From: Candidatus Woesearchaeota archaeon
GTDB taxonomy: Archaea; Nanobdellota; Nanobdellia; Woesearchaeales; 21-14-0-10-32-9
Reading direction: 5' to 3'
Assembly (NCBI GenBank): GCA_046543095.1
Contig: JBKHAC010000002.1
Location: 2,525-66,524, forward strand
Length of the DNA: 64,000 nucleotides
Shown: piece after piece, positions 2,481-58,273 of the stretch
How the letters are laid out: each line of letters opens with the position of its first letter
How positions within the stretch are numbered: the stretch's first letter is position 1
The notes under the pieces: model-generated
What the model was told of the DNA's origin: nothing
The model's input: only the letters and a program-made list of their open reading frames with translations
Databases searched by the model: none
Position numbers and translations under genes: made by a program

Positions 2481-3479
2481 CTAATCGTCTTTATTTTTCT
2501 CATCATCAGCTTTCACTTCACCAGATGAAATTTTAGTATCTTTGTTTGAATTATCAGGTTCATCAGATTTCTTTAAATCACTAAGCTGACCCTCAATTTT
2601 CCTAATCTGATCATTCAAATAACCTTGCATATTCAAACCCTTAGCAAACAAAGGATTATCATCCATCAATTTACGAAACGCCTCAGATAACATTTCAGCC
2701 TTATTTAATTTCAAATCAAATTCAAGCTGCAACTCACGCTTTGCATGCTTCAAATTAACATCTAATTTGGAATAACTATCAGATGCCAATTTAATAACTC
2801 TTTTAGCTTTCTCAATATCTTTAGAAAACCCAGTTATACTATCAGATAACTCTTTTTTAGTTACAAGAGCAGGATTTCTCGCTTCAAGCTTAGATAATTT
2901 ACTATTAATTTCTTTAATTTCTAAACCAAAATCATCAAGCTTAATCTCAAACTCATTAAACTCCTTAAACGTTTTCTGCACCTCAATAAACATAGTCTCA
3001 ATTTTATCAGCATGCTGCTCACATACAGCCTCAATTTTCTTCACAGTCATAATTTCGCGCTTTACTTCCTCATTTAATTTAAGAATCTGCTCAGCCCCAC
3101 GAAAAACCTCAATTTGAGCACGGACCTGCTTCAATTGCTCAAATAAAGCCTTCATCATCTCCTCATTACTCTCAATATTCGACCTTAACGCCTCAATTTT
3201 ACCATCAGACTTTTGCAAATCAATAGTTATCTTATCAGGCTTCACACTCTCAACAATATCAACAGCCTTAATAGCTTTAACTTCAATCCCAGAAACATTA
3301 CGATTCATATCATTTAACATACCACGAAGCTCACCTAATTGCTCAGTTAAATTACTGGAACGCTCACTTTCAGCCTTATTCATCTCAGTTAAAGACTCAA
3401 TTTTAGATTTTAAAATAGCAATATCCGCAGTTAACGCAGCATACTCTTTAGTCTCATTTACCTTAGGCTCTTCTTTCAC
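2481..3479 (-). CDS. Coiled-coil (E/K/L-rich) protein with an acidic C-terminal tail; function unknown
   Basis: Long ORF with heptad-like E/K/L periodicity throughout. Confidence 0.5.
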   Translation of the reverse strand: MKEEPKVNETKEYAALTADIAILKSKIESLTEMNKAESERSSNLTEQLGELRGMLNDMNRNVSGIEVKAIKAVDIVESVKPDKITIDLQKSDGKIEALRSNIESNEEMMKALFEQLKQVRAQIEVFRGAEQILKLNEEVKREIMTVKKIEAVCEQHADKIETMFIEVQKTFKEFNEFEIKLDDFGLEIKEINSKLSKLEARNPALVTKKELSDSITGFSKDIEKAKRVIKLASDSYSKLDVNLKHAKRELQLEFDLKLNKAEMLSEAFRKLMDDNPLFAKGLNMQGYLNDQIRKIEGQLSDLKKSDEPDNSNKDTKISSGEVKADDEKNKDD

Positions 3480-6722: not shown

Positions 6723-7718
6723 TTAAGAATTTAAAATTCTAAGCAAATCATCTTTAGATCTAGCTTCTCTGAGCTTATTTGCTAACTCATTATTGTGAAA
6801 AACATGATCAACCCAATTCGCAAAATCATTACGATGATCATTTACATGATGATAAAAAACCGCATCACTCATACTCTTAAGCTTTTCTTTAAGTTCACGA
6901 ATACTTGAAATAGTTTCACCATTTGATAGATTAAAATGCTTATTTTCATCAAGTTTATCTTCAACAAAATCAGACATCAATTTTTTTAATTCAGAAAGCT
7001 CACTTTTCAATTTACTCTCGCTTGTATCAACTTCTTTTTGAAGCAATTTAAGCTCACTTTTTTTAGTATGCCACATGTTTTCAAGAACTTTTAAAGATTC
7101 AATTTTACTATGTATTATTTGATTTAATTCATCATGATGAATGATGAAAGGGGTGCCACTATCTTCATTATCGTGAAAATCATTCAATGTATCGAATAAA
7201 TCTTTCTCAATTAAAGATTTCAATTTATTCTTTTTCTTTAAATCATCATCATTATCTTTATCAAGCAAAACTTGAAGTCTGGAGAAAAAACTATGATTAT
7301 CAACAGAGGGGGTGCTAGGTGTTAGACTTGGCTTATCATGAGTTGTTACTGCACTTGATTGAGATTGAGGTGTTTGCGCTGGCACGTTAGTTTGTTGACT
7401 TGCGGGTTCTGTTTTAGGCGCTTGCTGCAAGGGTTGTTTTACTGCTTCTTGTTCTTGCGGTTTTTGAACCGGTTCTTGAGCTTGAGGCGTTTGAGTAGAT
7501 ACATTGGTTTGTTGGCTTGCAGGCTCTGGATTAGGTGCTTGCTGCACTGGTTGCTCTACAGGTGATTCTTTTGCAGATTCAGGCTTGTTTAAACTAGGCA
7601 GACTATCAGGCACAGCAGTGACGCTAGGTGCGGGCTCTTCTTGATGTGGAAGTGCAGGTAAATGCTCGGGCACAGATTTACTTTCTGATTTTTTAGAACC
7701 TAATTTAAGTAATACCAA
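6723..7718 (-). CDS. Pro/Gln-rich low-complexity protein with a conserved C-terminal DFANWVDHV domain, paralogous to the C-terminus of the CDS at 10551
   Basis: C-terminal VFYHHVNDHRNDFANWVDHVFHNNELANKLR parallels FTKHVTEEKDDFANWIDHVLGLADIAQKLR in the 10551 protein. Contains an internal ~126-bp tandem DNA repeat encoding QQAP..EPASQQTNV.(T/A)QTPQ.Q. Confidence 0.55.
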   Translation of the reverse strand: MVLLKLGSKKSESKSVPEHLPALPHQEEPAPSVTAVPDSLPSLNKPESAKESPVEQPVQQAPNPEPASQQTNVSTQTPQAQEPVQKPQEQEAVKQPLQQAPKTEPASQQTNVPAQTPQSQSSAVTTHDKPSLTPSTPSVDNHSFFSRLQVLLDKDNDDDLKKKNKLKSLIEKDLFDTLNDFHDNEDSGTPFIIHHDELNQIIHSKIESLKVLENMWHTKKSELKLLQKEVDTSESKLKSELSELKKLMSDFVEDKLDENKHFNLSNGETISSIRELKEKLKSMSDAVFYHHVNDHRNDFANWVDHVFHNNELANKLREARSKDDLLRILNS

Positions 7719-7894
7719 TTAACAACCCACCTCTAAATATTTTTGGTCACTATTTATTTATAAATATGTCGATTTTTTCAACTTTATTTTCATTTTTTTT
7801 TCAAACTATTTAAACTATTTATTAAATTATTTTTACTTTCATGATTTATTTTCTGAATTTTATTTATTTCTTTGAATTGTTTATGTTATATGAA

Positions 7895-8028
7895 GTATAT
7901 TCGCAGTAGCGCTTTATATGACGCATAAAGATTAAAAAACTATTTGAAAATTATTTGAAATTTACTTTTAAAGCTCGAAAATTTATAATTCTCACATGTA
8001 ATTAAACTTGTTTGATTTTTCTCGTTTA
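7895..8028. repeat. Family-7 element ending in the palindrome AATTAAACTTGTTTGATT plus a T-run, located 3' of the gene at 8037
   Basis: Shares TATATTCGC(A/G)GTAGCGCTTTATATG ... CTATTTGAAAAT ... AATCAAACTTGTTTGATTTTTCTCGTTTA with 62052, 41393 and 53234. Confidence 0.7.
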
Positions 8029-8036
8029 TTTCAAAT

Positions 8037-8762
8037 TTAAATTAATTCAATATAAAAATAATATTCTTCACTCACACTCAAATTCTGATTTTCAGGCAAT
8101 ATTAACTGAAAATCATAAGTGTTATTATTAAAACCAATAGCACCATTTTGCAAGACACTCGAAAAAATTAAATTTGAATTATTATCTGATAAAATAACTT
8201 CTTCAAAATCCCTTGATGATGTGTTGTTATAAACATTTAACGCCGCAGATTTGCAAGAATCGGTTTCAATATAATTAAAAAAAGTGTAAAATGATTCGTG
8301 TTCGCTATCGCTAAATGTTCTATTAACTGAGTACTCAATTGAGGGCTCAAAACCAAGATAACTATCTTCTAAAATAATTTCAGAATTATTCGCGCATCTA
8401 ATATTATTCCAATCTAATGTGTTGCTTCGAGACGCATAAATTTTACCGCGTGTATTGTCCATTATCCAATCAAATAAACTAGTAGAACCATCTCCTAATT
8501 TAAGCCTGCCCGAAATATTACCAACATAACCTCTCCAAAACGGATTAGGCTGAGATGCCTCAATGTTTACTACATGAATATGTCCTCCGCTACTAATAAG
8601 CTCAACTCCCGGCTCGAGAGGAATAGAATAATTATCAACATACGTTATGTTTCCACCAGATGGATAAAAAGGAGAAGAGAACACATTATTAGATAAAACT
8701 AATATTGATGAAAAAAATAAAAGTGCAAAAATTAATTTCACTAAACTATTTGATTTTATCAT
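8037..8762 (-). CDS. Secreted paralog-family protein (fourth member)
   Basis: Signal peptide. Motifs HIHVVNIEASQ, W.GYVGNISGRL.LGDG, IYASRSN and C-terminal EYYFYIELI. Confidence 0.6.
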   Translation of the reverse strand: MIKSNSLVKLIFALLFFSSILVLSNNVFSSPFYPSGGNITYVDNYSIPLEPGVELISSGGHIHVVNIEASQPNPFWRGYVGNISGRLKLGDGSTSLFDWIMDNTRGKIYASRSNTLDWNNIRCANNSEIILEDSYLGFEPSIEYSVNRTFSDSEHESFYTFFNYIETDSCKSAALNVYNNTSSRDFEEVILSDNNSNLIFSSVLQNGAIGFNNNTYDFQLILPENQNLSVSEEYYFYIELI

Positions 8763-9133
8763 TTAAAATCCCTCCGCTTAGTAAAAGTAATCCAAATCGT
8801 CTGATAAGACCTTGAGAGAATCTTAGAAATATCATTAATGCTTAGAAGTTTATCTTGATATAAGTACAAAATAATATTTCCAAGAATATTGCCTTCTTTG
8901 TGTATTGCACTTAAAGGAATTTTAATTTTATGATTTTTTTTAAACTGCTTAGGATGCTTTTTTTTCGCTTTACTATACGTAATAGAGATAGTAGATTTAT
9001 CCCTTCTTGTTAAGGACGCAATTTTAGTTATGGTAAAAGACTTATTTTCTTTTAAATATTTAACCACGCTCTCAAAACAACCAAGCTCTTTTTTAAAAAT
9101 AGATACAGGGATTAAAGTTTCTTGTTCGAGCAT
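8759..9133 (-). CDS. Small HTH DNA-binding protein, translationally coupled (4-nt overlap) to the secreted-family gene at 8037
   Basis: Predicted HTH segments FTITKIASLTRRDKSTISI and LSINDISKILSRSYQTIWI. Its stop overlaps the 8762 start (ATGA). Confidence 0.45.
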   Translation of the reverse strand: MLEQETLIPVSIFKKELGCFESVVKYLKENKSFTITKIASLTRRDKSTISITYSKAKKKHPKQFKKNHKIKIPLSAIHKEGNILGNIILYLYQDKLLSINDISKILSRSYQTIWITFTKRRDFK

Positions 9134-9488
9134 TGAATCTAGTTTAGATACATTATACCCTTCTTTTTTTAAAAATTCAAAAAATAATTTGGTAAGTTCT
9201 TTATTTTCTATTTTAATTTCCCCTTCAATTAAATTTAACCAATCAAAAATGTTTTCGTGTTTTAAATCAAAATTTATTTGTTTTAAATATAAACTACTAA
9301 AAAAGTTTTATTAAATTATAAATAATATAATATTTTGTTTTATTAAATTATAATATTGTTATGTGTTTTAATATATAAAATTATCTTTTTTAACGCCGCA
9401 CTTTAGAGAAAAAACCTGATTAAAAAAGTAACATTTATATATACTTTAGACATAAATTATTTTATCATACTTTCAAAGAGGTGTTTTC

Positions 9489-9788
9489 ATGATAAAAAAA
9501 CGAGTTAATGTTCAAGCATTAGAAATGTTTATTATGTCTTTAATGGTTTTATTTGGCCTAGGAGCTATAGCAATATTATATTATGCACTACAATACCCAT
9601 ATTTAATAGATTTATCATTAATAGTTATCGAGATGCTAATAATATTAATTATAGCAGTGCTCGGACTTGCATATTTAATAATAAGAATATGGGAGCGACA
9701 CATTGTGCCCTATTCAATGGTTTCTGCAGATGAAAAGAAGAAAATAGATTCAGACGATAAAAAAAGAGCAGAAAAAATTAAAAATTAA
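9489..9788 (+). CDS. Small membrane protein (2 TM) with a K/D-rich tail
   Basis: Hydrophobic helices. SD AAAGAGGTG upstream. Confidence 0.4.
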   Translation: MIKKRVNVQALEMFIMSLMVLFGLGAIAILYYALQYPYLIDLSLIVIEMLIILIIAVLGLAYLIIRIWERHIVPYSMVSADEKKKIDSDDKKRAEKIKN

Positions 9789-9849
9789 AAATTAAAAATT
9801 AAAAAAATTGAAAAGTTTTAAAAATTAAAAAATAAGGTTTTATAACAAA

Positions 9850-10440
9850 ATGTTCAAACAAAAAAAAGCAGTTATGGGCGTAGGAATGCTACTAATATTT
9901 GTAGCGAGTATAGTCTCAGCAGCAATAGCTGCAGCACTACTTATAACATCAACAAATTTACTACAAGATAGAGCAGCTAAAGTACAACAAGACGCAACAG
10001 AAGGACTTATTAGTGGACTTGATGTAGTTTCAATATATGCAACAGGAAATATGACAACAGAGATAATATACGAATTTGAATTCATCACAAGGCTTAGAGC
10101 AGGATCAAGACCTGCACAACTAGACTCCTTAGGCCTTACATTTATACAAGGTGAAAACACAGCAACAGGATACATGAACACATCACTTATAGGCGATAAC
10201 TGCACATTTGAAAATCTTCAAGCTGAAACAGAATTTTGCGTGAATAAAATATTCGGCGATGAAAACACAGTACTTGAAAGTGGCGATATGGCAATTATAA
10301 AATACAAATTATCCAACGAATCCGCACTACCAACAGACACTCCCTTCGATATAATATTCCAACTTAGAGTCGGCTCACCTTTAATTATGGCCTTGCAAAC
10401 GCCTGATATGGTACTTAGCAGTAAGATAAGACTTAGATAA
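9850..10440 (+). CDS. flaB: Archaellin (FlaB-family) with a class III signal peptide
   Basis: N-terminus KKAVMG/VGMLLIFVASIVSAAIAAALLI followed by the archaellin-type conserved block LQDRAAKVQQDATEGLISGLDVVSIYATG. Confidence 0.75.
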   Translation: MFKQKKAVMGVGMLLIFVASIVSAAIAAALLITSTNLLQDRAAKVQQDATEGLISGLDVVSIYATGNMTTEIIYEFEFITRLRAGSRPAQLDSLGLTFIQGENTATGYMNTSLIGDNCTFENLQAETEFCVNKIFGDENTVLESGDMAIIKYKLSNESALPTDTPFDIIFQLRVGSPLIMALQTPDMVLSSKIRLR

Positions 10441-10550
10441 ATATAAACTTAATTTACTAAATAGTTTAATGAACGATTTAAAGAATAACAAACTAATATT
10501 TTAATTATTTTTAATAAAATAAAAAAAACAAAAAAAAGAGGCAAATAGTA

Positions 10551-11786
10551 TTGGGACTACTATCATTTTTAAAGAAAAAACCTAAAGAAGAAAAAAAAGA
10601 AGGGGATAACACGAATCAACTGATTGAAGATAGTTCTAAAACTCAAAATACAACACTCAAACCAGAAGAGACTAATTCTATAAGTGCAAACACGGAAAAT
10701 AATACTCAAAGTACCCAAAGTGTTCAAAATAAAGATGAACAAAATAATCAAAATACTCAAGAAGATGACTCCAACGAAGATTTCGACAAACTCGTCACAC
10801 AAATAATAACAAAACTTGAAGATATGAAAACAGGCGCAGACACAAAACTAGAAGAACTCGAGACAAAAATACAAGAACTAAACAACACAAACAAAAAAGA
10901 AGAACTAGATGCAATAAAAGAAAAAGTTGAGAAACTAGAAAACAGCCTAAAAGAATTCTCATCAATATATGAGGCAATAAGCTCACAATACAACCCACTC
11001 TTAGACGGATTCGACGAGAGAGATAAAAAACAAAACCTAAACAAAGAAGAAAAACAACAAGAAACTGCGCGAAGCATAGATGCGTCAGAAATTCAACAAT
11101 CGCCTGAAATTGAACAGAAAAACGTTACTGAACAAATAAAAGAACAAAATACGGAAATGACACAGAGCCTAAACAAACAAAATGAAGAACAACAAGTTCA
11201 AGAAGCTCAGCAAACCCAACAAGCTCAACAGTCCCAAGAAATAATCACACAAACACAAGAACACACAAAAGAACAAATACAAGAAAAGGTACAAGAAAAG
11301 GCACAAGAACAAATAGAAGAAAAGGTACAAGATAGCACCTCACAAACACAAGAAACAAATTCAGATTATAATTTAAAATACACAATATCAACACAATCAG
11401 ATCTCGACGATGACAATAACACAGAACAAATACTAGTATCAAGACACGAGAATAAAAACCAAAGCGCAGATAGAGAATCAATACTAAAGAAAAAAATAAT
11501 AGAATACATGCTTAAAGAAAAAAGAATACACTTAGAGAGATTATCAAGAACAGTAGACGGCGATAAAAAATTCTTTTTAGATAATAATAAAGCAATAGCA
11601 AATTTAATTGATTTAGTAAATATAATAAAAGACGACGAACAATCATTCACAAAACACGTAACAGAAGAAAAAGATGATTTTGCAAACTGGATAGACCACG
11701 TACTCGGACTTGCAGATATCGCACAAAAACTTCGAGGAATAAAAAACAGAGAAGAATACACGCTAACACTTCTATCTGAAATATGA
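10551..11786 (+). CDS. Gln/Glu-rich coiled-coil protein with a conserved C-terminal DFANWIDHV domain; immediately downstream of an archaellin gene
   Basis: Low-complexity N-terminus with a Q/E coiled coil. The C-terminus shares a ~40-aa domain with the CDS at 6723. Confidence 0.55.
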   Translation: MGLLSFLKKKPKEEKKEGDNTNQLIEDSSKTQNTTLKPEETNSISANTENNTQSTQSVQNKDEQNNQNTQEDDSNEDFDKLVTQIITKLEDMKTGADTKLEELETKIQELNNTNKKEELDAIKEKVEKLENSLKEFSSIYEAISSQYNPLLDGFDERDKKQNLNKEEKQQETARSIDASEIQQSPEIEQKNVTEQIKEQNTEMTQSLNKQNEEQQVQEAQQTQQAQQSQEIITQTQEHTKEQIQEKVQEKAQEQIEEKVQDSTSQTQETNSDYNLKYTISTQSDLDDDNNTEQILVSRHENKNQSADRESILKKKIIEYMLKEKRIHLERLSRTVDGDKKFFLDNNKAIANLIDLVNIIKDDEQSFTKHVTEEKDDFANWIDHVLGLADIAQKLRGIKNREEYTLTLLSEI

Positions 11787-12000
11787 ATTAAGTTAATAAC
11801 TAAACAAACAATTAAATTAATGATAAAACTAATAATTATGAAAATAAATTTTCTAAACTTCTTTAAATAATTAATAAGTGCGGACACAATTTAATAATCT
11901 ATTTTTATATTAATTGAAAAAATAACAAAATTAAATTAAAAGTATGATGGGGCGCCATATTGATGATTAAAGTCTAATAAGAAATATTGAATGCACGAAA

Positions 12001-12813
12001 TCAAGATTTATAATTATTTTTTAAATATGCGGCGACGCTTGGAAATAAATGTGTACTTCTATTATTCAATTGAATGGTAAGATTAGGATTGTCATTAAAA
12101 TTAGTTTTTAAACTGCCAGAATACTGTGAATTCGCCTGTAATTCTTTAAGCATTATACCTTCAAGAAGTAGATTCTTTAAAAAAATATGAGAAATTAAAG
12201 GCTTTAAACCTGATTCTTGTCGCTCCATAAAATCAGGCAAATTATTTGCTTCTTCTTTTTCAATATGTGATTGTCTATTTAAACCAGTATTTTCAAAATC
12301 AATTATTGTGTCTTTTGTGTATAATTTAAATCCTTCATTTTTAAGAGAAGCCGTATTTCTTACATACTCTTTATATATTTTTAAATCTATATCTAAATTT
12401 TTTAAATCTTCAATATTGCTTTTATTAGGTATGGTTGCTATATATATGTGGTCTAATTCACACTTGAGTTTATTTTCATCATGATTATAATGTGAAAAAA
12501 TCATAATGTCTTTTTTATCACCATCAAAAAAGGATAATTTACTCGAATAAAACGGCAGGACGCGTTCTTCTTTACTTCTTATAGCTTCAATAGTTAATGT
12601 TGCTTTTGCAGTTTTATCTTTTAAGAAGTCATTGTATGCATTTAAAGAAATATTTTGTTTAAAATAATTATTAATGGAGTTGGTGTTCAAATCGTTTTCA
12701 ATTATGTCAATAGGTGACTTAATCATACTTAGACATAATCCTCCAGCTAGTAGGGTTGTTTTTAGTAGAAAATCTCTTCTCGACATTTCTTTACTTGAGC
12801 TCGTCATAAGCAC
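12001..12813 (-). CDS. Tat-secreted protein of unknown function
   Basis: Twin-arginine motif SRRDFLLKTTLLAGGLCLS at the N-terminus. Confidence 0.5.
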   Translation of the reverse strand: MLMTSSSKEMSRRDFLLKTTLLAGGLCLSMIKSPIDIIENDLNTNSINNYFKQNISLNAYNDFLKDKTAKATLTIEAIRSKEERVLPFYSSKLSFFDGDKKDIMIFSHYNHDENKLKCELDHIYIATIPNKSNIEDLKNLDIDLKIYKEYVRNTASLKNEGFKLYTKDTIIDFENTGLNRQSHIEKEEANNLPDFMERQESGLKPLISHIFLKNLLLEGIMLKELQANSQYSGSLKTNFNDNPNLTIQLNNRSTHLFPSVAAYLKNNYKS

Positions 12814-12891
12814 TAGAAAAACAACAAAACTATATAAATGTTTCTATTTAGTAGTGACGAAATAATTCTTTTTGATTTTTTTGAAGTAACT

Positions 12892-14568
12892 CTACCAAAT
12901 CGTACTCATATCAGGAAGAACCATATCAACAACAGAAGGAATAGTCCAATAAAGCAAAGCAATAATCCAAATCATAATAATTAAATTAATGATGGATGAA
13001 TAATTAGACCCACCATCAATAATCTTCAAAATCCACGAAGACGTAAAAGCATGAATTATAAGCATAACCATAATAAGAACAAGAGCCACACCAAAATTAA
13101 TCTCCTGATTCATAGGCATAATAGTCTGCGCAAAATCAACAGTCATCTCATCATCAATATTCGTCGTAGAAAAAAGCTGAGACATCTTCTCAGAAATCCT
13201 AAACGTAATAAAAATAGTTAAAGACACACCAATAGTAATACCATAAAAAACACCAGTGAGACCCTGCGCGAGCTGAGCCCTAAGCTTCCTTAAAGAAAGC
13301 AAATGCTGAACATTATTACTAACAATCTCACCAATCTTTTCAGCATTACCACCAAGATAAATAGACTCAGAGAAAATCTTACTAAAATTATTAACCAAGT
13401 TACTACCAGAATCAACCGCGTAATGATACCAAGACTTAAACTTATCAGTACCAAGCCTCAAACGCCTATAAAGATTAACACTCATATCATTAATAACACC
13501 AAAATCATGCATCTGAGTAGATTTTAAAGACGAAATAACGCCCCCATTACGAACCTCAATAGCAGACCCCAAAATCCTCGCATAAACAGGAAACTGAACA
13601 TCACGCTTACGCACAATCTCTTCCTCACGAACAGCAAGAAACCCAGGATATAAAAGCGGAAGCGAACCTAAAGCCATAACAGTAATAAACGATAAAGAAG
13701 TCAAAAATAATAAACCAACAAAAAAAACACCACTAATAATCACAGCAAATTTAAACGCCTGCTCAATTTTTAACTGACCTAAACTTTTATGCGCCAAATC
13801 ATGAAAAATTTGATCACGAGGAATAAAACCTTTCACTGCAAAAATAATCACAACATCCATAACAACTAAACCAACCAAAGCATAAATGAGCAAAACATTA
13901 ACAGGCAAAGCAATTAACAAAGGCGCAAGCAAAATAGTACTCACAAGAAACGCAAAAGAAACCGAGAGCGCCATAAACAATTCTTGAATCATCTTAATAA
14001 TCTCAAGAGATTTTTTATATTCAACAGAATAATCATCAAGCACAGCACCCTGCTCATCATACAAAAAAGTATCAAGCTCCTCACCAAAATCCATGACAAC
14101 AGCGAACCTATCAAGAAAATCACCAAGAATACGAGAAGGAGTCCTCGAACCCATCAAACGACAAGAATTAACAAAACCCATATTCCAATCTTTAGACAAA
14201 TAAATAACCTTCTCAAACGTCTTACTAATCTCACCAAAAACCTTTTTCTCAGCAATCTTCTTAAATAACGCATGACGAGAAATCTTCATAGTCGCAATAG
14301 TACCTGCATAAGTAATAAAAAAATGCAAATTCTCATTAATATTTTGTTTAACAGCAGAATACTTAATTAAAGGATAACCTATAAGTCCACCCATAGTTAA
14401 TAAAATTAAAAAAATACTAAACACAAAACCAACAGGAACAATAAAAGGAATAATTAAAGAAATTAAAACAACACTACTCAAAATAGGCAAAACTAACTTC
14501 AACAAATAATCATTCAAATTCGAATAACCCACAAGTAAAATTACTTTATCAATTTTTTTAGTATTCAT
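12892..14568 (-). CDS. flaJ: Archaellum assembly membrane protein FlaJ (TadC/GspF-like)
   Basis: Polytopic membrane protein of 558 aa immediately downstream of flaI. Typical FlaJ N-terminal TM pair and cytoplasmic domains. Confidence 0.8.
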   Translation of the reverse strand: MNTKKIDKVILLVGYSNLNDYLLKLVLPILSSVVLISLIIPFIVPVGFVFSIFLILLTMGGLIGYPLIKYSAVKQNINENLHFFITYAGTIATMKISRHALFKKIAEKKVFGEISKTFEKVIYLSKDWNMGFVNSCRLMGSRTPSRILGDFLDRFAVVMDFGEELDTFLYDEQGAVLDDYSVEYKKSLEIIKMIQELFMALSVSFAFLVSTILLAPLLIALPVNVLLIYALVGLVVMDVVIIFAVKGFIPRDQIFHDLAHKSLGQLKIEQAFKFAVIISGVFFVGLLFLTSLSFITVMALGSLPLLYPGFLAVREEEIVRKRDVQFPVYARILGSAIEVRNGGVISSLKSTQMHDFGVINDMSVNLYRRLRLGTDKFKSWYHYAVDSGSNLVNNFSKIFSESIYLGGNAEKIGEIVSNNVQHLLSLRKLRAQLAQGLTGVFYGITIGVSLTIFITFRISEKMSQLFSTTNIDDEMTVDFAQTIMPMNQEINFGVALVLIMVMLIIHAFTSSWILKIIDGGSNYSSIINLIIMIWIIALLYWTIPSVVDMVLPDMSTIW

Positions 14569-17477: not shown

Positions 17478-17852
17478 ACTTTATAACCCCTCTTTTTTAA
17501 TAAAAAATAATCATCACTCAACAAATATAAATGTTTCTATCTTTATAAGTATTTGCCTTTAAAAAAAGACAGAGATAAAACTATTTAGAAAAATAGATGC
17601 GTAAATTAATGCGCAAAAAATAAAAGATAATTTAACAGATTTAAAACTAAACAAACAAAATAAAAAAGCCAAAGAAACAAATAAAAAAACATAAACTGAA
17701 ACTAACTTTGAAAATTAAAATAAAATTTATTGATGTACTTCTTATCGTCTAAAATTACCTCTAAACGGATTTGATGGAAAAGTTTATATATTAAATTAAT
17801 TATTTTTTGTTTAAACCCACGGGGGGTTTGCTTAAAAAAAGAGGTAGTAATA

Positions 17853-18437
17853 ATGAAAAATTATAATAAAAAAGCAGAAGTAGCTATGGGCACGCTAATC
17901 ATATTTATCGCAATGATACTGATTGCAGCAGTCGCAGCAGCTGTTTTAATTTCATCAATAGGAAGTATTCAATCTAAAGCACTAGAGACTGGGTCTGCAA
18001 CAAGACAAGAAATAGGAACAAATGTAAATGTGGTCGAAATATACGGACCGAAAGATACAAATGAATCAACAATAACAAACATAAGCATGGTTGTACGCCT
18101 CGCAGCAGGATCAGACCCAATTAGACTTAGTGATTTACTTCTAACTATTGGCGCTGAGAATTTCACAAACGAATTCACATATAATTCAACAGACCATAAT
18201 AAAGGAGGAACTGCTGGCGCATCATTTAACGTATCATACCTTCTTGAAGGAAATAACAACCAACCTGATTATCTAGTTAAAGGAGACGTTGCAAGATTCG
18301 ATTTAGAACTTGAATATGCAGTAGGAGAAGATGCGAGTTTAAGATTTACACTTATACCAAAAATAGGAACTCCCGCAATAGTGTTTGCAACAACACCTAA
18401 TGCAATAGCAAATTCAAGAGAAACTATTTTCCCATAA
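17853..18437 (+). CDS. flaB: Archaellin (FlaB-family), tandem copy 1
   Basis: KKAEVAMG/TLIIFIAMILIAAVAAAVLISS class III signal/archaellin N-terminus. Divergent from flaGHIJ. Confidence 0.85.
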   Translation: MKNYNKKAEVAMGTLIIFIAMILIAAVAAAVLISSIGSIQSKALETGSATRQEIGTNVNVVEIYGPKDTNESTITNISMVVRLAAGSDPIRLSDLLLTIGAENFTNEFTYNSTDHNKGGTAGASFNVSYLLEGNNNQPDYLVKGDVARFDLELEYAVGEDASLRFTLIPKIGTPAIVFATTPNAIANSRETIFP

Positions 18438-18653
18438 GTTTTCGATATGAACAGAGGCGCATCTTTTTTTCTTTTTTTATCTATATTTTAATCATCCAAA
18501 AAATAACAAAAAAAGCGTTATTAGTATAGATTTTAGGCTACTTAGCGCTATTTTTTAATCAAAAAATGGAAAGATTTATATACTACTACAATAAAGTATT
18601 CTGTATGCCCCTATCTCAGGGCTTAGATTTAATTAAAAAAGAGGTAGATAAAT

Positions 18654-19226
18654 ATGAGAAAAAATAATAAAAAAGGAGAAGTTGCTATGGGCACATTAAT
18701 TATATTCATAGCAATGATACTGATTGCAGCAGTCGCAGCAGCAGTTTTAATATCTTCCATAGGAAGTATTCAATCTAAAGCACTAGAGACTGGGTCTGCA
18801 ACAAGACAAGAAATAGGAACAAACATCAACACAGTAGAAATCTACGGATTTAAAGATGGTGATGATGCTACAATGACTAACTTTAGCATGGTTACAAGAC
18901 TTGCAGCAGGATCAGACCCTGTAAGACTTGGAGATTTATTATTAACAGTTGGAACAGAATCATTTACTGATGAGTATACATACAACTCAACAAATTTGAG
19001 TGCGGGCACCACATTTAATGCATCTTACTTGCTTAAAGGTGCAAACAATCAAAATGGTTATATAGTTAAAGGTGACGTTGTGAGACTTGATTTTATTTTA
19101 AGTGATACAATCGGCGAAGATGCAACAATGAGATTTACAATGATTCCAAAAATTGGAACTCCAGCAGTTGTATTTGCATCAACACCAACAACTATTGCGA
19201 ACTCTAGAGAAACAGTTTTCCCATAA
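18654..19226 (+). CDS. flaB: Archaellin (FlaB-family), tandem copy 2
   Basis: Same N-terminus as 17853. About 110 nt of 5' coding sequence is nearly identical between the two copies. Confidence 0.85.
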   Translation: MRKNNKKGEVAMGTLIIFIAMILIAAVAAAVLISSIGSIQSKALETGSATRQEIGTNINTVEIYGFKDGDDATMTNFSMVTRLAAGSDPVRLGDLLLTVGTESFTDEYTYNSTNLSAGTTFNASYLLKGANNQNGYIVKGDVVRLDFILSDTIGEDATMRFTMIPKIGTPAVVFASTPTTIANSRETVFP

Positions 19227-23652: not shown

Positions 23653-23768
23653 GGTGGACAGCTTTCCGGATCTCCCGCCCTTGAAGGCAGTACGCACCGG
23701 AACGTGCATGTGCTTGACTTCCGTGTTCGAAATGAGAACGGGTATATCCACACGGCTTTGACCGTCCA
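23653..23768 (-). rRNA. rrf: 5S ribosomal RNA
   Basis: Reverse complement reads GGACGGTCAAAGCC...CCGTTCTCATTTCGAACACGGAAGTCAAGC...GTACTGCCTTCAAGGGCGGGAGA...GCTGTCCACC. Helix I termini pair. Matches the universal 5S loop C and helix IV/V consensus. GC-rich island in an AT-rich context. Confidence 0.85.
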
Positions 23769-23982
23769 ATACATAGGAATGCACATCCCTTTATAAAGCT
23801 TTTTCTTAAAAATAATTATCTTCAATAATGAAAATAAATTATTTTTCAGGATTTTTAAAAATTATGAAATAAATGTCTTAAATGTCTTGTTCATAATACT
23901 GCAAATATTCCACATAATTATTATCTCATCATGAACTAAAAAAATAAAAGATTTTTAAAGAAAAGACAAGTAATAAAATAAA

Positions 23983-53273: not shown

Positions 53274-54140
53274 TTAAGATTTAAGATTATTTAATAAATC
53301 AACAACAAAAGACATAGACCCATCATTTACAATAACAATATCAAATTTAGACAAATACAAACCAAGCTTCTCCCCAACATTATCATTTAAAAAACCAATC
53401 TTCAAAACAACATCCAAATTAGAATCATCAACCATACTAATATCATCTAAAGAATCACCAAGCAAAATAACACAAGACCTATCACGAATTAAATCTAAAT
53501 ACATCTCATCCTGAATTAAACACTCAGACTTATTCATAAGATGAATAACATCTTCCTTGTAGCCAGTAGCAAAACCCTCGCTATTAAAGTCAAAAGTATT
53601 AGATAAAACATGAACATTACCAAAAAACAAACCATCTTTTTTCAAATAACCCTCAATTAAATTACCAATACCCGCCGAGAAAATAAGCAAAGGAATATCA
53701 TTATCAGACAAAAAACGTAAAACATCATCTGCGCCCTCACGAAAAACGTTAGGATATTTAACCAAAATATCATCAATAATACTCTTATGCATGCCACACT
53801 CAACAAATAATTTTTCATGAGTCTCCCACCACGCCTGCATCATCTTAAACCTAAAATCATAATCAAGAGATAAATCAAGCTCAATAGGATTATACTTATT
53901 GTACAAAGCAAACGCGCGAGAAGGATAATCCTCAGATAAATAACCACCCTCACGAATCAAACCAATAGCTGACGGAATCTTCTTACCAGAAATAAAACAT
54001 TTAGTTAAAGTCCTATCAAAATCAGATACAACGTGCAACTTAGAAAAACCACGAGACTTAATCTTATCCAGTTTATCTTTAAGCAAAACCTCGTCCTTGA
54101 AATAAATATTAGTCACAAAAACAATAAACAAACACCTCAC
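53274..54140 (-). CDS. HAD-superfamily hydrolase, pyrimidine 5'-nucleotidase (UMPH-1)-like
   Basis: Motif I HVVSDFDRTLT. Later IFSAGIGNLIE and GDSLDD HAD motifs. Confidence 0.45.
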   Translation of the reverse strand: MRCLFIVFVTNIYFKDEVLLKDKLDKIKSRGFSKLHVVSDFDRTLTKCFISGKKIPSAIGLIREGGYLSEDYPSRAFALYNKYNPIELDLSLDYDFRFKMMQAWWETHEKLFVECGMHKSIIDDILVKYPNVFREGADDVLRFLSDNDIPLLIFSAGIGNLIEGYLKKDGLFFGNVHVLSNTFDFNSEGFATGYKEDVIHLMNKSECLIQDEMYLDLIRDRSCVILLGDSLDDISMVDDSNLDVVLKIGFLNDNVGEKLGLYLSKFDIVIVNDGSMSFVVDLLNNLKS

Positions 54141-54167
54141 TTAAATAATTTATTAAAATAAAGTTGT

Positions 54168-54294
54168 GGACAAAATTTTTTGGTAATACCACGAACTTCG
54201 AGCATTATTTGGTTCGTGGTGCCGAGTCTATTTAATTCGTGTTTAAATCCATATTGCTCGTTTAGGTATTACCAACTTTTTATATCCTTTACTA
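54168..54294 (+). repeat. Family-5 TIR element
   Basis: GGTAATACCACGAACTTCGAG ... CTCGTTTAGGTATTACC. Copies at 55265, 57523 (head) and 58228 (tail). Confidence 0.75.
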
Positions 54295-54504
54295 ATAACG
54301 TGAAAATACCAAAAATCACTTTTGCGTAACAAAACCCAAGAAGAACTAACGCAAATTTCTACAATCTTATTTTTCTCGTGAAGTACCAATTAAAATCATA
54401 ATCGCCACTGACACAGTAAAGCAAAAAACCCAAGTTATAATAAAAACTCAAAGTATAAATAAAACAACAAATTACCTAAAAAAATAATAAGGAGGATGAT
54501 ACAA

Positions 54505-54969
54505 ATGTTAAAGGAAGGAGATATCGCACCAAGTTTTTCACTCAAAGACCAAAACGGAAAAGTACATACACTAAAAGATTACACAGGACAAAAAATAGTA
54601 CTATATTTTTATCCAAAAGATAACACACCAGGATGCACAAAAGAAGCATGCGCATTTCGCGATATATACGAAGAATACAAAAAAAATAATATACTTGTTC
54701 TAGGCATTAGCAAAGACACAGAAAAAAGCCACAAAAATTTTGCTGAAAAACACAATTTACCATTTAATTTACTTATAGACGAAAACCGAGACATACTAGA
54801 AAAATACGGTGCGTGGACAAAAAAAAGTCTATATGGTAAAATGTTCATGGGGATACAAAGAATAACCTATGTTATAGATGAGAAAGGCCACATACTCAAA
54901 GTATACCCAAAAGTAAAACCTGAAGATCACGCAAAACAAATACTTAAAGACATAGGAATAAATACATAA
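54505..54969 (+). CDS. bcp: Peroxiredoxin Bcp/PrxQ
   Basis: YFYPKDNTPGCTKEACAFRD peroxidatic Cys motif. SD AGGAGG 9 nt upstream of the ATG at 54505 (the track starts at 54496). Confidence 0.85.
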   Translation: MLKEGDIAPSFSLKDQNGKVHTLKDYTGQKIVLYFYPKDNTPGCTKEACAFRDIYEEYKKNNILVLGISKDTEKSHKNFAEKHNLPFNLLIDENRDILEKYGAWTKKSLYGKMFMGIQRITYVIDEKGHILKVYPKVKPEDHAKQILKDIGINT

Positions 54970-55036
54970 AACTACAAGGATAAAAAAACAATTTTTCTAA
55001 CAATACCTGCATAGCGTAGACGAGCAAAGAGTTTTA

Positions 55037-55180
55037 TTACAAATTGGGTTTAATACCCCGCTGCTTCGCAGTGACTTCAGACTCGATTTGTAATGACAGA
55101 AAATCCGCCAGCGAAAATTCGCGTCAGTACTCCGCAGCTCTGCTGCGCGAGATAGCGAATTTTAGGATTTTCGTTTTATT
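55037..55180 (+). ncRNA. Family-2 structured element, copy C
   Basis: Outer stem TTACAAATTGGGT/ACTCGATTTGTAA (two G-T wobbles). Inner stems conserved. Confidence 0.45.
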
Positions 55181-55195
55181 TCGTTTTTAAAACCG

Positions 55196-55260
55196 AGTCT
55201 AGTTAAAACGTGTTTGTAAACACAGGGCTCTTTTAAGCGCTAGCTACTCTCTACTTTTTA
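55196..55260 (+). repeat. Family-6 element
   Basis: Matches 20928..21000. Confidence 0.6.
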
Positions 55261-55264
55261 GCAA

Positions 55265-55395
55265 TGGACAAAAGTTTTTGATAATGCCACGAGCTTCGCA
55301 TATTATTTAGTATATGGCACCGAGTCTATCGAATTCGTATTTGAATTCGTATTGCTCTTTTAGGCATTACCAACTTTTTATGTCCTCAACTATTT
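55265..55395 (+). repeat. Family-5 TIR element (intact reference copy)
   Basis: GACAAAAGTTTTTGATAATGCCACGAGCTTCGC ... GTATTGCTCTTTTAGGCATTACCAACTTTTTATGTCCTCAACTA. Confidence 0.75.
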
Positions 55396-55451
55396 AGGGG
55401 CAAAACTTAAATAATACTTAGAGATTATATTGAATAAATAAGGTGATACAA

Positions 55452-56129
55452 ATGAAAAAAATAATTATGATAATAAGCCTTGTAGCATTACTTTTAGTCG
55501 CAGCATGCACACAAGACAATGCACAAGAAAACAACGAATTATCAGAGGATGTACTTTCTCAAGATGATAACTTAATAGAAATAGGAAATGAAAACCAAGA
55601 AGAAGAATTACCAGAAATAGCGGCAACAGCTAACGGCGATATAATACTCACAGAAGAAGTTCTCAGCTTCCAATCACAAATGATGATGCAAGGAGTACAA
55701 CTAAACTTAGATGACGCATTAACAGAATTAATTAACAGACGACTTATTATACAAGAAGCAAAAAATAGAGGATATGAAGTTACAATACAAGATGTAAAAG
55801 ATTTATTCTTAAAACAAGGATTTGAAGAAGAACAACTAAAAGAAACAATAGACTCGCAAGGAATGAACTACGAAGAATTCCTAGAAAGCCAAATGGATGA
55901 TACACTATTCATATTATTACTTGAAGAAGAAAAAGAAAAAGTAGAAGTTACAGATGAAAATGCACAAGCATTCTACGAAGAAAACAAACATTTACTTGAA
56001 GAAAATGTAACCTACGAAGAAGTAGAACAAGAAATATACGATATATTAAAAGAACAAGAATCAATGGAAGCATTAACAGAAATACTAAATGAAGCACTAC
56101 TCACAGCAGAAATAGAAAAATTCATTTAA
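55452..56129 (+). CDS. Lipoprotein with a SurA-N-like chaperone domain
   Basis: Lipobox LLVAAC. Acidic helical body resembling SurA N-terminal/PpiD-type domains. SD AAGGTGATACAAATG. Confidence 0.4.
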   Translation: MKKIIMIISLVALLLVAACTQDNAQENNELSEDVLSQDDNLIEIGNENQEEELPEIAATANGDIILTEEVLSFQSQMMMQGVQLNLDDALTELINRRLIIQEAKNRGYEVTIQDVKDLFLKQGFEEEQLKETIDSQGMNYEEFLESQMDDTLFILLLEEEKEKVEVTDENAQAFYEENKHLLEENVTYEEVEQEIYDILKEQESMEALTEILNEALLTAEIEKFI

Positions 56130-56774: not shown

Positions 56775-57470
56775 TTAATCCCACAAAAATTCTTCAAGAT
56801 TAAAATCATTCTCAAATTGCATCTTCGCAATATTAGAAATAAAACTCGGCTCAAAATCAGAATTAAATACAGACTGATTAACACCACCTTCAAGCAAGAT
56901 ATCATATGAAATCTCAACACAATTGTTAAATAACATATTATATTCCCTATTTTTCTCAAGTAAAGATAAATCAAAATTAGAAAATTCCTCAAAAGACATA
57001 TTTTGATTATCTAAATAATCTAAAAAAAAAGACTCAGCCTTAACAAAACTAGAACTAAAATTACCACGAACAAGCAAAGCAGAATCAAAAGGCGCATGAT
57101 AGTTCTGAAAAGAACCACTTTCTGCAAGCCACAAATTAAACGCATCCAAACCAGACATAGCAAAAGACGGAACCTCAACAAAAACAACTTTTTTTAACTG
57201 CCAAGAAAAATAATACCAAGAATTATTATGCTCAAGTAAAAGAGTAGTATGACCAAAACCAAGCGCACCACTAGACGCAGTTAAAATAACAGCACGATTA
57301 TTCTTAGATGATTCAAATTCATTTATAAATCTAATTTTATCATCTGACATATTCAAATCATCAAAAAATAAAGGCCTAAACGCCAAAGCACCAACACTTA
57401 AGGAAATAATAACAAATACCAATAATAAAATAAAAAACCTAAACCTTCCACTTTGCCTATATTTAAGCAT
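56775..57470 (-). CDS. Hypothetical membrane-anchored protein
   Basis: N-terminal TM helix. ORF only. Confidence 0.3.
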   Translation of the reverse strand: MLKYRQSGRFRFFILLLVFVIISLSVGALAFRPLFFDDLNMSDDKIRFINEFESSKNNRAVILTASSGALGFGHTTLLLEHNNSWYYFSWQLKKVVFVEVPSFAMSGLDAFNLWLAESGSFQNYHAPFDSALLVRGNFSSSFVKAESFFLDYLDNQNMSFEEFSNFDLSLLEKNREYNMLFNNCVEISYDILLEGGVNQSVFNSDFEPSFISNIAKMQFENDFNLEEFLWD

Positions 57471-57522: not shown

Positions 57523-57640
57523 GACAAAAGTTTTTGATAATGCCACGAGCTTCGCATATTGGTTGGTTTGTGGCGCCGAGCATGTTGAATTCGTGTTTAA
57601 ATTTGTATTGCCCGCCAGAGGCTCTCTTAATTTTAAAAAC
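57523..57640 (+). repeat. Family-5 element head, interrupted at 57612..57622
   Basis: Matches 55265..55375, then diverges at CCGCCAGAGGC. Confidence 0.7.
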
Positions 57641-57667
57641 AATGATGCTTTTCAAACAAAGAATTAT

Positions 57668-57997
57668 TCACATTCGAAAACCAAACTTCTTTAAGTCTTC
57701 TTTTAATTTGTCAATTACATGTTGTTGATTATTTTTTTTGCTTAATGCCACGAACTTTATTATCAAGTTTTTTAATTCTTCTTTTGTAATTATGTGTTTC
57801 TTTGAGTCTTGCACTATAAAGTAAAATCTAAACGATTTTAATCTTTCTTCCCTTATAACAATGTTCGTGATTAAAGTCACAAAATCCCCATCAGCTGGAC
57901 TTGTTAATGCTAATTCGTTTACTAATATTTTAGCTTCTGTTTTAGAAGAATGTTTTTTTAATTCTTTAATAAATTGTTTTGAGAATTCAACTACCAT
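57668..57997 (-). CDS. RelE/ParE-superfamily toxin
   Basis: FSKQFIKELKK...KILVNELALTSP...FRFYFIVQD pattern typical of RelE/ParE. Overlaps the upstream antitoxin ORF by 7 nt. Confidence 0.55.
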   Translation of the reverse strand: MVVEFSKQFIKELKKHSSKTEAKILVNELALTSPADGDFVTLITNIVIREERLKSFRFYFIVQDSKKHIITKEELKNLIIKFVALSKKNNQQHVIDKLKEDLKKFGFRM

Positions 57998-58185
57998 TTT
58001 TCTATTTCTTTTAGTGCTTCGTCTAATGATAAAGTATCTGAACTAAAGAATACTTGAGCATTTAATCTAGTAATTTCGTGATTATATAATCTATTCAGAA
58101 CCGCGTCCCAACTCTCTGATTTGTTAGCAATTTGTCTAAGTTTATCTCTTGTTTCTTGTTGTACAGGGATTGTTGTTAATGACAT
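57991..58185 (-). CDS. Antitoxin-like small protein (64 aa)
   Basis: Immediately upstream of and overlapping the toxin gene. Size and acidic C-terminus typical of type II antitoxins. Confidence 0.5.
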   Translation of the reverse strand: MSLTTIPVQQETRDKLRQIANKSESWDAVLNRLYNHEITRLNAQVFFSSDTLSLDEALKEIEKW

Positions 58186-58227
58186 CTTATAACCTTATAA
58201 TTTGCTTATATTTATATATTTTTCGCT

Positions 58228-58273
58228 TCTAGTCTCCGCCAGAGGCATTACTAATTTTTTATGTCCTCAACTA
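58228..58273 (+). repeat. Family-5 element tail (resumes after CCGCCAGAGGC at 58236..58246)
   Basis: CCGCCAGAGGCATTACTAATTTTTTATGTCCTCAACTA matches the 3' end of 55265..55395. Confidence 0.7.

Follow-up and report, generated by a model that had tools for sequence, protein, structure and literature searches.

How does a toxin-antitoxin (TA) gene pair that carries no integrase come to lie inside an intergenic repeat, bounded on both sides by the same 11 bases? The locus that raises this question is part of a 64,000-nucleotide stretch (here called the window; G+C content, 31.8%) from the genome assembly of a Candidatus Woesearchaeota archaeon (GenBank GCA_046543095.1, contig JBKHAC010000002.1). 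A second assembled copy of the region (locus L001; GCA_964462285.1, contig CAYWYM010000010.1) differs from the window by 1 mismatch in 16,333 overlapping bases. The site is a divergent intergenic region between a gene encoding a 231-amino-acid (aa) protein (56775-57470, minus strand) and dphB, encoding diphthine synthase (to 59131, plus strand). We report here that the 11-mer corresponds to the 3′ end of a tRNA-Thr gene and that the unit it bounds is probably an integrase-less mini-cassette (promoter/operator, ribbon-helix-helix [RHH]-type antitoxin, and RelE-fold toxin) mobilized in trans through a tRNA-Thr attachment (att) core. The features of the locus, together with the three copies of the intergenic repeat (family-5), are as follows.

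54169 to 54294, plus strand: first copy of family-5, intact, placed by the three-copy alignment.
55267 to 55392, plus strand: second copy of family-5, intact, an imperfect palindrome used as the reference (DNA fold z score of −4.1 to −4.5).
57523 to 57611, plus strand: 5′ part of the third copy of family-5 (head and body up to the insertion point), the first 37 nucleotides (nt) of which equal copy 2.
57612 to 57622, plus strand: left direct repeat CCGCCAGAGGC, which with its neighbors (57611-57623) reads CCCGCCAGAGGCT.
57623 to 57667, minus strand: 3′ untranslated stretch of the cassette, from the toxin stop codon to the left repeat, including a T-run.
57997 to 57668, minus strand: 109-aa toxin candidate, with a RelE/ParE-fold core (residues ~1-70) and two C-terminal helices bearing an invariant SKKNxQQ.
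58185 to 57991, minus strand: 64-aa antitoxin candidate, the open reading frame (ORF) of which overlaps the toxin start by 7 nt.
58186 to 58235, minus strand: putative promoter/operator stretch of the cassette, with an A/T-rich, TATA-like box, TATATAAATATAAG, at 58205-58218.
58236 to 58246, plus strand: right direct repeat CCGCCAGAGGC; at the homologous position upstream of the promoter, locus L091 reads GCCTACGGCGG.
58247 to 58273, plus strand: 3′ tail of the third copy of family-5, ATTACTAATTTTTTATGTCCTCAACTA, placed by the copy alignment.

The original prediction, made from the letters of the window, described an 11-bp direct repeat around a 613-bp insert, and this description is borne out. 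The two copies of CCGCCAGAGGC (57612-57622 and 58236-58246) are exact and bracket 613 bp (57623-58235), with a chance expectation from shuffled sequence of 0.07, and no further match with up to 1 mismatch was found on either strand of the 64 kb. The identity between the copies extends over exactly 11 nt, and the flanks differ on either side. The insert and one repeat together make a unit of 624 bp, and no terminal inverted repeats pairing the two ends of the cassette were found. When these 624 bp are removed, the split third copy of family-5 (57523-57622 joined to 58247-58273) aligns end to end with copy 2 at 106 of 127 positions, and the mismatches between the two copies concentrate at the 11-mer. 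The cassette, as predicted, breaks up a repeat that was already in place.

Family-5 itself is a 127-nt palindromic intergenic repeat present in three copies, all on the plus strand and within 4.1 kb of one another. The palindrome is imperfect, with the head GACAAAAGTTTTTGATAATGCC pairing with the tail GGCATTACCAACTTTTTATGTCC (DNA fold z score of about −4). At the position of the 11-mer, the alignment reads CTCGTTTAGGT in copy 1, CTCTTTTAGGC in copy 2, and CCCGCCAGAGGC in copy 3, with copy 2 aligned against copy 3 as CTC-TTTTAGGC. Copies 1 and 2 thus lack the 11-mer, which is not part of the ordinary variation of the repeat. A distant relative (GCA_041642595.1; loci L094/L095) provides the comparison with an empty site that had been proposed: there, dphB and the orthologue of the 231-aa gene (222 aa; 47% identity) lie 139 bp apart, and the spacer between them contains neither family-5 nor the TA pair. 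Because this spacer lacks both, we regard family-5 and the cassette alike as having been added to an intergenic region that is older than either; the promoter block of dphB, tttattaaaaaaggtttc, lies outside family-5 and is conserved. Rfam searches of the window at the gathering threshold and of 54.0 to 58.5 kb at an E value of ≤1 detected no RNA family in family-5 or the cassette, and the only Rfam match in the window was the 5S rRNA at 23653-23769.

The identity of the 11-mer emerged from comparison with tRNA genes. The 13 nt at 57611-57623, CCCGCCAGAGGCT, are an exact tRNA-Thr gene 3′ end, comprising the 3′ strand of the T-stem, the 3′ strand of the acceptor stem, and the discriminator U. 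In a structure-aware metagenome scan, which required the 5′ strand of the acceptor, the T-stem, and then the 11-mer, 13 tRNA-Thr genes (GGU or CGU anticodon) ended in CCCGCCAGAGGCT, including five of the six tRNA matches on contigs of ≤33% G+C. Judged by its sequence, the 11-mer is a tRNA-Thr 3′-end fragment rather than an arbitrary target-site duplication or a variant of family-5. Such tRNA 3′ ends usually serve as the crossover core when elements integrate into tRNA genes.

The association recurs beside homologous cassettes, in line with the earlier proposal that the 11-mer is an attachment-type site. In the closest relative (L339), whose toxin is 85% identical, the toxin gene and a full tRNA-Thr(GGU) gene are arranged tail to tail, the tRNA gene starting 74 nt past the toxin stop. 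In a multiple alignment, this tRNA gene occupies the position of the left repeat of the window and of the corresponding site of L091, which reads GGAGCCTCCGGCGG (aligned stretches: window, aattaagAGAGCCTCTGGCGG; L339, aataagaAAAGCCTCCGCCGAGATTTGAAC...; L091, aagaagtGGAGCCTCCGGCGG). A Pacearchaeote (L068, on a 764-kb contig) carries a tRNA-Thr(GGU) gene ending in ...TCGGTCGAGGCT, followed immediately by a promoter, a 68-aa gene, a 112-aa toxin homologue, and then TAGGTCGAGGCT, which matches 11 of the last 12 bases of the tRNA; the unit between the tRNA end and this fragment is 611 bp. The intact tRNA at the junction, absent from the window, is thus found in both L339 and L068. Two of the metagenome contigs with a tRNA-Thr gene ending in CCCGCCAGAGGCT bear additional copies downstream of the tRNA: at L291, a tRNA-Thr gene is followed by a two-gene unit of 1.08 kb and a 15-nt repeat, and at L310 a tRNA-Thr gene, 121 nt, and a 19-nt repeat follow one another, with a third copy 1.9 kb beyond. 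Unit sizes are consistent across genomes (611, 624, 631, and 651 bp). In at least four other genomes, this cassette family is linked to a tRNA-Thr gene or to a 3′ fragment of one, and in four independent genomes the flanking repeat is the 3′ end of tRNA-Thr. Additional nearby copies of the 3′ 11-mer accompany 5 of 12 distinct tRNA-Thr genes versus 3 of 36 other tRNAs in low-G+C loci, a count that is indicative only because the loci were not neutrally sampled. The tRNA-Val gene located just past the end of the window has no extra copies of its 3′ end within the window.

Two side observations concern these tRNA-linked loci. The 121-nt stretch of L310 (86-206) is noncoding and runs from the tRNA-Thr gene to a perfect 19-nt copy of its 3′ end; this "empty" unit is a scar left by a cassette since lost or, alternatively, a minimal noncoding insert. 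In addition, on both L068 (3296-4018) and L310 (314-1048), which are unrelated contigs, the gene that comes first after the repeats linked to tRNA-Thr(GGU) encodes a class I S-adenosylmethionine methyltransferase of 240 to 244 aa. Beyond the shared core, the similarity of family-5 to the 121-nt spacer of L310 or to tRNA trailers was no better than that of shuffled sequences, and for this reason we do not claim that family-5 is tRNA derived.

The most elaborate arrangement was found in a second Woesearchaeote (L009/L012/L091), in which the toxin is 75% identical and the cassette has the same boundaries as in the window. On L091, GCCTACGGCGG and GCCTCCGGCGG stand on either side of the cassette, and each matches the window repeat at 10 of 11 positions and equals the 3′ end of the contig's own tRNA-Thr(GGU) gene. 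The motif occurs here at eight sites in a single orientation, between the genes for IMPDH and a tRNA synthetase (7122-13009 of SONG20-1 scaffold_3/CAYRYB010000002.1), and these sites bound seven units of 491 to 1,091 bp. Each unit contains one gene or TA pair, on either strand, and the cargo comprises a NUDIX protein, a Bro-N protein, the TA pair, and four genes of unknown type. What is repeated is the core with ~40 nt of trailer-like sequence, and the last site has 45 nt in common with the tRNA 3′ end and trailer. This duplicate of 45 nt (21 nt from the tRNA-Thr 3′ end and ~21 nt from the trailer; 13009 and 19652) brackets 6.6 kb that encode two tRNA-synt_1b proteins, an aldehyde dehydrogenase, an APH-type kinase, and a cytidylyltransferase; what appear to be housekeeping genes therefore stand between the array and the tRNA. 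At five of the eight sites the sequence is TGGAGCCTCCGGCG, complementary to ...CGCCGGAGGCU-CCA. The tRNA-Thr gene of this contig is followed by TTG rather than CCA, and the tRNA-Thr gene of another locus (L285) does encode CCA; the CCA of the array may come from a donor lineage with a CCA-encoding tRNA-Thr or from an RNA-templated step.

The two genes carried by the cassette have the layout of a type II TA operon: they are small, codirectional, and overlapping, with the antitoxin first and a conserved block upstream. Three direct repeats of WTATAAG (58205-58211, 58194-58200, and 58186-58192) precede the antitoxin, the last abutting its ATG, and the arrangement ATATAAATATAAG....TTATAA..TTATAAG upstream of this ATG is invariant in six loci from different genomes. 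The block is a putative TATA-like promoter with operator repeats. On the other side of the pair, the stretch at 57623-57667 is homologous to the spacer between toxin and tRNA-Thr in relatives and resembles a tRNA trailer (aligned downstream flanks: window, aattaagAGAGCCTC; L339, aataagaAAAGCCTC; L091, aagaagtGGAGCCTC). The 64-aa and 109-aa genes are kept together at every locus inspected, in differing genomic contexts; occurrence of the pair in unrelated neighborhoods of different metagenome-assembled genomes (MAGs) is as expected for mobile cargo. Compared with four relatives, pN/pS was 0.12 to 0.23 over both genes (0.14 to 0.23 for the antitoxin), indicating purifying selection.

The toxin candidate has the compact α/β architecture typical of RelE/ParE proteins, in which N-terminal helices pack on a three- to four-stranded antiparallel sheet. 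Candidate functional residues are two invariant positions of the central strand, R57 and Y59, and those of the SKKNxQQ helix. A search of a 5.8-billion-protein collection returned 99 homologues, nearly all of 107 to 113 aa, and a full hidden Markov model search of 1.84 billion cluster representatives placed the family in 78 clusters alone, from which we regard it as narrow. Nearly all hosts are MAGs labeled Woesearchaeota, Pacearchaeota, or Nanoarchaeota; the remaining labels are several "uncultured Methanosarcinales," one Euryarchaeota, and two bacterial. The window toxin has no match in Pfam, NCBIfam, or PADLOC, a toxin profile search against PDB sequences found nothing, and none of 38 homologues matches the RelE/ParE-type Pfam families (ParE_toxin, RelE, YoeB, HigB, and similar). 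The predicted RelE/ParE-like toxin thus stands by its fold only, and the protein represents a new, narrow branch of that fold with family-specific last two helices carrying SKKNxQQ. For its partner, matches of the window protein to PF02697 VapB_antitox (E value of 1.9e-3; 19.4 bits versus a curated cutoff of 27.9) and to DUF7557 (E value of 7.5e-4) fall below the curated cutoffs; among 19 antitoxin homologues, 15 match PF02697 (E value of ≤0.01; best, 4.6e-6) and 17 match DUF7557. The AlphaFold2 (AF2) monomer model of the antitoxin is of low confidence (pLDDT 55.7) and places helices at 10-23 and 26-35 after an extended N terminus, an order that would fit a strand-helix-helix protein; a fold search with this model was dropped, the model being too poor. 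We consider the type II TA reading well supported, with toxin activity as the candidate function.

Together, these comparisons suggest how the cassette may have arisen and moved. In its ancestor, the toxin gene would have lain tail to tail with tRNA-Thr(GGU), as in L339, and the cassette would have taken along 13 nt of the tRNA and the trailer (the 45-nt stretch up to the toxin stop). Recombination between core and core would produce a 624-bp circle with one core, with the predicted junction AAGAGAGCCTCTGGCGGAGACTAG (longer form, ...TTAAGAGAGCCTCTGGCGGAGACTAGAAG...), and a predicted empty site reading ...GTATTGCCCGCCAGAGGCATTACTAAT...; excision and insertion would be carried out by a tyrosine-type recombinase encoded elsewhere. 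Insertion in the window would have used, as a secondary site, a core copy that lay within the palindromic intergenic repeat. The observed junctions fit a reciprocal exchange between a circle reading ...AGTCT-CCGCCAG-AGGCT-CTC... and a target reading ...ATTGC-CCGCCAG-AGGCA-TTAC..., in which the left junction joins the left arm of the target to the right arm of the cassette and the right junction does the converse. Five-nucleotide inverted arms (AGTCT/AGGCT) around CCGCCAG in the reconstructed circle junction were considered and set aside as too short to carry weight. Once in place, the toxin would cleave ribosome-bound mRNA in the manner of RelE, the antitoxin would neutralize it and repress the promoter through the WTATAAG repeats, and the pair would stabilize the cassette or the host array by postsegregational killing.

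Several observations weigh against mobilization in trans through a tRNA-Thr core. The cassette contains no integrase, the two small genes with their control regions taking up its 613 bp; a regular-expression scan for tyrosine recombinases in all window ORFs of ≥150 aa, a weak test, returned nothing; and the 20 kb surrounding the L091 array yielded no recombinase. In the window, the cassette does not lie at a tRNA gene, and no tRNA is reconstituted at the junction: ARAGORN and Rfam detect no tRNA in the 64 kb, and the sequence 5′ of the left repeat is family-5 rather than a T-arm. That the 11-mer matches the tRNA-Thr end of the source genome itself is something we infer from other organisms. 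The pre-insertion sequence of the third family-5 copy is likewise a reconstruction, and copies 1 and 2 (CTCGTTTAGGT and CTCTTTTAGGC) lack the core; either copy 3 belongs to a subtype with an intact core, copies 1 and 2 possibly having decayed by C-to-T changes, or the insertion rewrote 7 bases. The repeat flanking the L339 cassette consists of about 57 to 75 nt of tRNA trailer with only GCCT, and for this reason looks more like a Campbell-type, homology-driven insertion than a short core exchange. At L068 the pair is oriented the other way with respect to the tRNA, flanking repeats are missing altogether from most homologous TA loci, and toxin activity and its neutralization are predictions from sequence.

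Searches beyond these loci add the following. No recombinase domains were found in the proteins of the other cassettes. In viral contigs, the patterns CTCCGCCAGAGGCTC (circle junction) and TCCCGCCAGAGGCT gave only chance-like matches, none at tRNA-Thr, and a toxin-profile scan found no relatives of the toxin; we therefore see no evidence of a virus carrying the pair. Among ~70 TA homologues searched for flanking repeats, only L024 and L081 had one besides the window, L091, and L068. At L024, a ~130-nt direct repeat (2520-2645 and 3240-3365) surrounds a distant TA homologue and ends in a perfect 26-mer, ACGATGCCAAGAGTGGATGGTCGGCC; it is neither a tRNA nor an Rfam family. The repeat at L081 (2349 and 3317; 35 to 60 nt), also around a distant homologue, resembles a duplicated gene start. 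At L003/L011 a tRNA-Thr(CGU) gene lies 500 bp from the TA pair, but there is no repeat.

The main rival explanation is homology-driven insertion without any dedicated enzyme. A TA unit adjacent to tRNA-Thr could have been moved by homologous or microhomology recombination, either by gene conversion from an array elsewhere in the genome or by a Campbell-type event in which a circular or transformed fragment inserts, and the 11-mers would then be retained edges of homology. The imperfect 57- to 75-nt repeat of L339 (79 to 85% identical) is exactly the product of a single-crossover insertion, the L091 core is accompanied by its trailer-like sequence, and no recombinase gene was seen near any cassette. 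However, 11 bases are very short for such a process, and the window repeats agree over 11 nt alone; the repeats of L068, L291, and L310, at 11 to 19 nt, are sharp ended and located at the tRNA 3′ end, a site-specific pattern; and seven consecutive L091 units with a common short core in one orientation would be hard to obtain by random events. We judge this explanation unlikely, yet a good deal less so than the three that follow. 

A nonautonomous transposon or MITE-like element (MITE, miniature inverted-repeat transposable element) with an 11-bp target-site duplication would account for fixed short direct repeats around a small insert that has no mobility gene, and the target is itself palindromic and MITE-like. 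The cassette has no terminal inverted repeats, however, and the duplicated sequence is not arbitrary but the tRNA-Thr 3′ end; the L091 cassette and the distant L068 homologue are flanked by the tRNA-Thr sequence of their own genomes, and at L339 a whole tRNA gene stands in the position of the left repeat. This alternative is strongly disfavored. Hardly more probable is an integron-type cassette, with family-5 or the ~55-nt units of L091 serving as attC-like sites for an IntI-type integrase. The L091 array consists of single-gene units with a conserved repeat between them, family-5 folds as an imperfect hairpin of attC-like length, and among the annotated cargo of integron cassettes, archaeal and bacterial, TA pairs are the most frequent (PMC9668308). 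Yet a crude scan for R″/R′ boxes (RYYYAAC...GTTRRRY) with a stem gave 0 candidates in the L091 array and at 53 to 59 kb of the window, the insertion point lies within family-5 rather than at its end, and the common element is a tRNA 3′ end, not a hairpin; moreover, the cassettes have their own promoters and lie on both strands, and no IntI was seen in their neighborhoods. Movement linked to reverse transcription, in which the repeat would be a primer-binding-site-like complement of the mature tRNA-Thr 3′ end, would explain why the TGGAGCCTCCGGCG sites of L091 include a CCA that the tRNA gene does not encode. No CCA is present in the repeats of the window, L068, L291, L310, or L339, however, and the five L091 copies are paralogues and therefore amount to one observation. 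No reverse transcriptase was seen, and the cassettes contain promoters, which processed transcripts would lack; of the explanations weighed here, this one has the least claim to be correct.

The surroundings of family-5 were also recorded. Copies 1 and 2, spaced 1,098 nt apart, bracket a peroxiredoxin gene (54496-54969) in the gene region 53274-56129. In two related loci (L093 and L096), an HD_4 gene is followed directly by a gene for a 294- to 295-aa protein and then by L10/L1; because of this direct succession, a 228-aa gene, the peroxiredoxin gene, and a UMPH-1 nucleotidase gene are read as lineage-specific additions in the window. The family-5 copies are located at the junctions of these genes, and family-5 itself may mark cassette boundaries. 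The window contains many further families of intergenic repeats of 70 to 190 nt (for example, at 391/3593/31526/63456, 20696/37903/48023, 3895/42483/55031, 6296/39271/42996, and 7877/41375/62033), one copy of which (55031-55180) adjoins family-5 copy 2; no tRNA-Thr core was found in these other families. Elsewhere in the window, the tandem paralogues at 17775-18434 and 18648-19223 (220 and 192 aa) have similar C-terminal halves, corresponding to a 300-nt repeat of 81% identity with copies 801 nt apart.

Mobilization in trans through the tRNA-Thr core has partial counterparts among known systems. As in tRNA-targeting integrative elements with tyrosine integrases, a group that includes genomic islands, proviruses, and integrated plasmids of archaea, the direct repeats are copies of a tRNA 3′ end, the unit lies between an intact tRNA and a displaced 3′ fragment (L068, L291, and L310), and insertions stack. 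In contrast to those elements, the units described here measure 0.5 to 1.1 kb and carry one gene or TA pair without an integrase; the window copy is not at a tRNA, and the seven units of L091 lie 6.6 kb from theirs. Like integron cassettes, they form recombinase-less arrays of single genes with a repeated recombination site, and their TA cargo is of a kind thought to be stabilizing; unlike integron cassettes, they have a short tRNA core with trailer instead of a folded attC with R and L boxes (by the crude scan), own promoters, and either orientation, and no IntI or attI was seen. Cis-mobilizable elements (CIMEs) are bounded by att sites, lack a recombination module, occur in tandem at tRNA 3′ ends, and rely on the integrase of another element; they have been described in Firmicutes, are several kilobases long, and are decay products of integrative and conjugative elements. 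The present units share with them the att-type bounds, the missing recombination module, and the tandem accumulation at tRNA 3′ ends but are far smaller, archaeal, and apparently built around single accessory genes. The toxin, in turn, differs from those of RelBE modules such as aRelE-aRelB of Pyrococcus horikoshii (PDB 1WMI) in its lack of detectable similarity to RelE/ParE Pfam families or PDB chains and in its two extra C-terminal helices with the invariant SKKNxQQ.

The individual ingredients have precedents in the literature. That elements integrate at tRNA 3′ ends and displace 3′ fragments is textbook knowledge (Islander database, PMC4383910), and mobile elements are documented to leave partial tRNA fragments behind (PMC9897764). 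Archaea, including Nanoarchaeota, have integrons that contain TA cassettes, as well as attC clusters without an integrase (Ghaly et al. 2022, PMC9668308); a review (PMC5704250) covers CIMEs and further att-flanked elements that have no integrase of their own and are mobilized in trans. Our literature search found no description of promoter-bearing, integrase-less units of 0.5 to 1.1 kb with tRNA-Thr 3′-end cores, arrayed or dispersed.

We tentatively raise the possibility of a wider system, for which the balance of probability is not yet favorable: Woesearchaeota and Pacearchaeota might capture genes in an integron-like manner, with the tRNA-Thr 3′ end (plus trailer) as the site. Promoter-bearing single-gene cassettes of 0.5 to 1.1 kb would be arrayed there and occasionally dispersed to look-alike sites by a recombinase supplied from another part of the genome, a virus, or a plasmid, and the RelE-fold TA pair would have a stabilizing role as in Vibrio superintegrons. 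Other MAGs could be searched with two keys, a tRNA 3′-end fragment repeated every ~0.5 to 1 kb and the circle and empty-site junctions. The genomes of DPANN archaea are tiny, and the organisms rely on hosts and are considered to exchange genes intensively; to our knowledge, almost nothing is known of how they acquire accessory genes. If correct, the proposed system would provide a concrete, testable route of gene gain in DPANN, by integrase-less, array-forming cassettes with tRNA-Thr 3′-end junctions, and would represent a second, independent solution to the problem solved by bacterial integrons.

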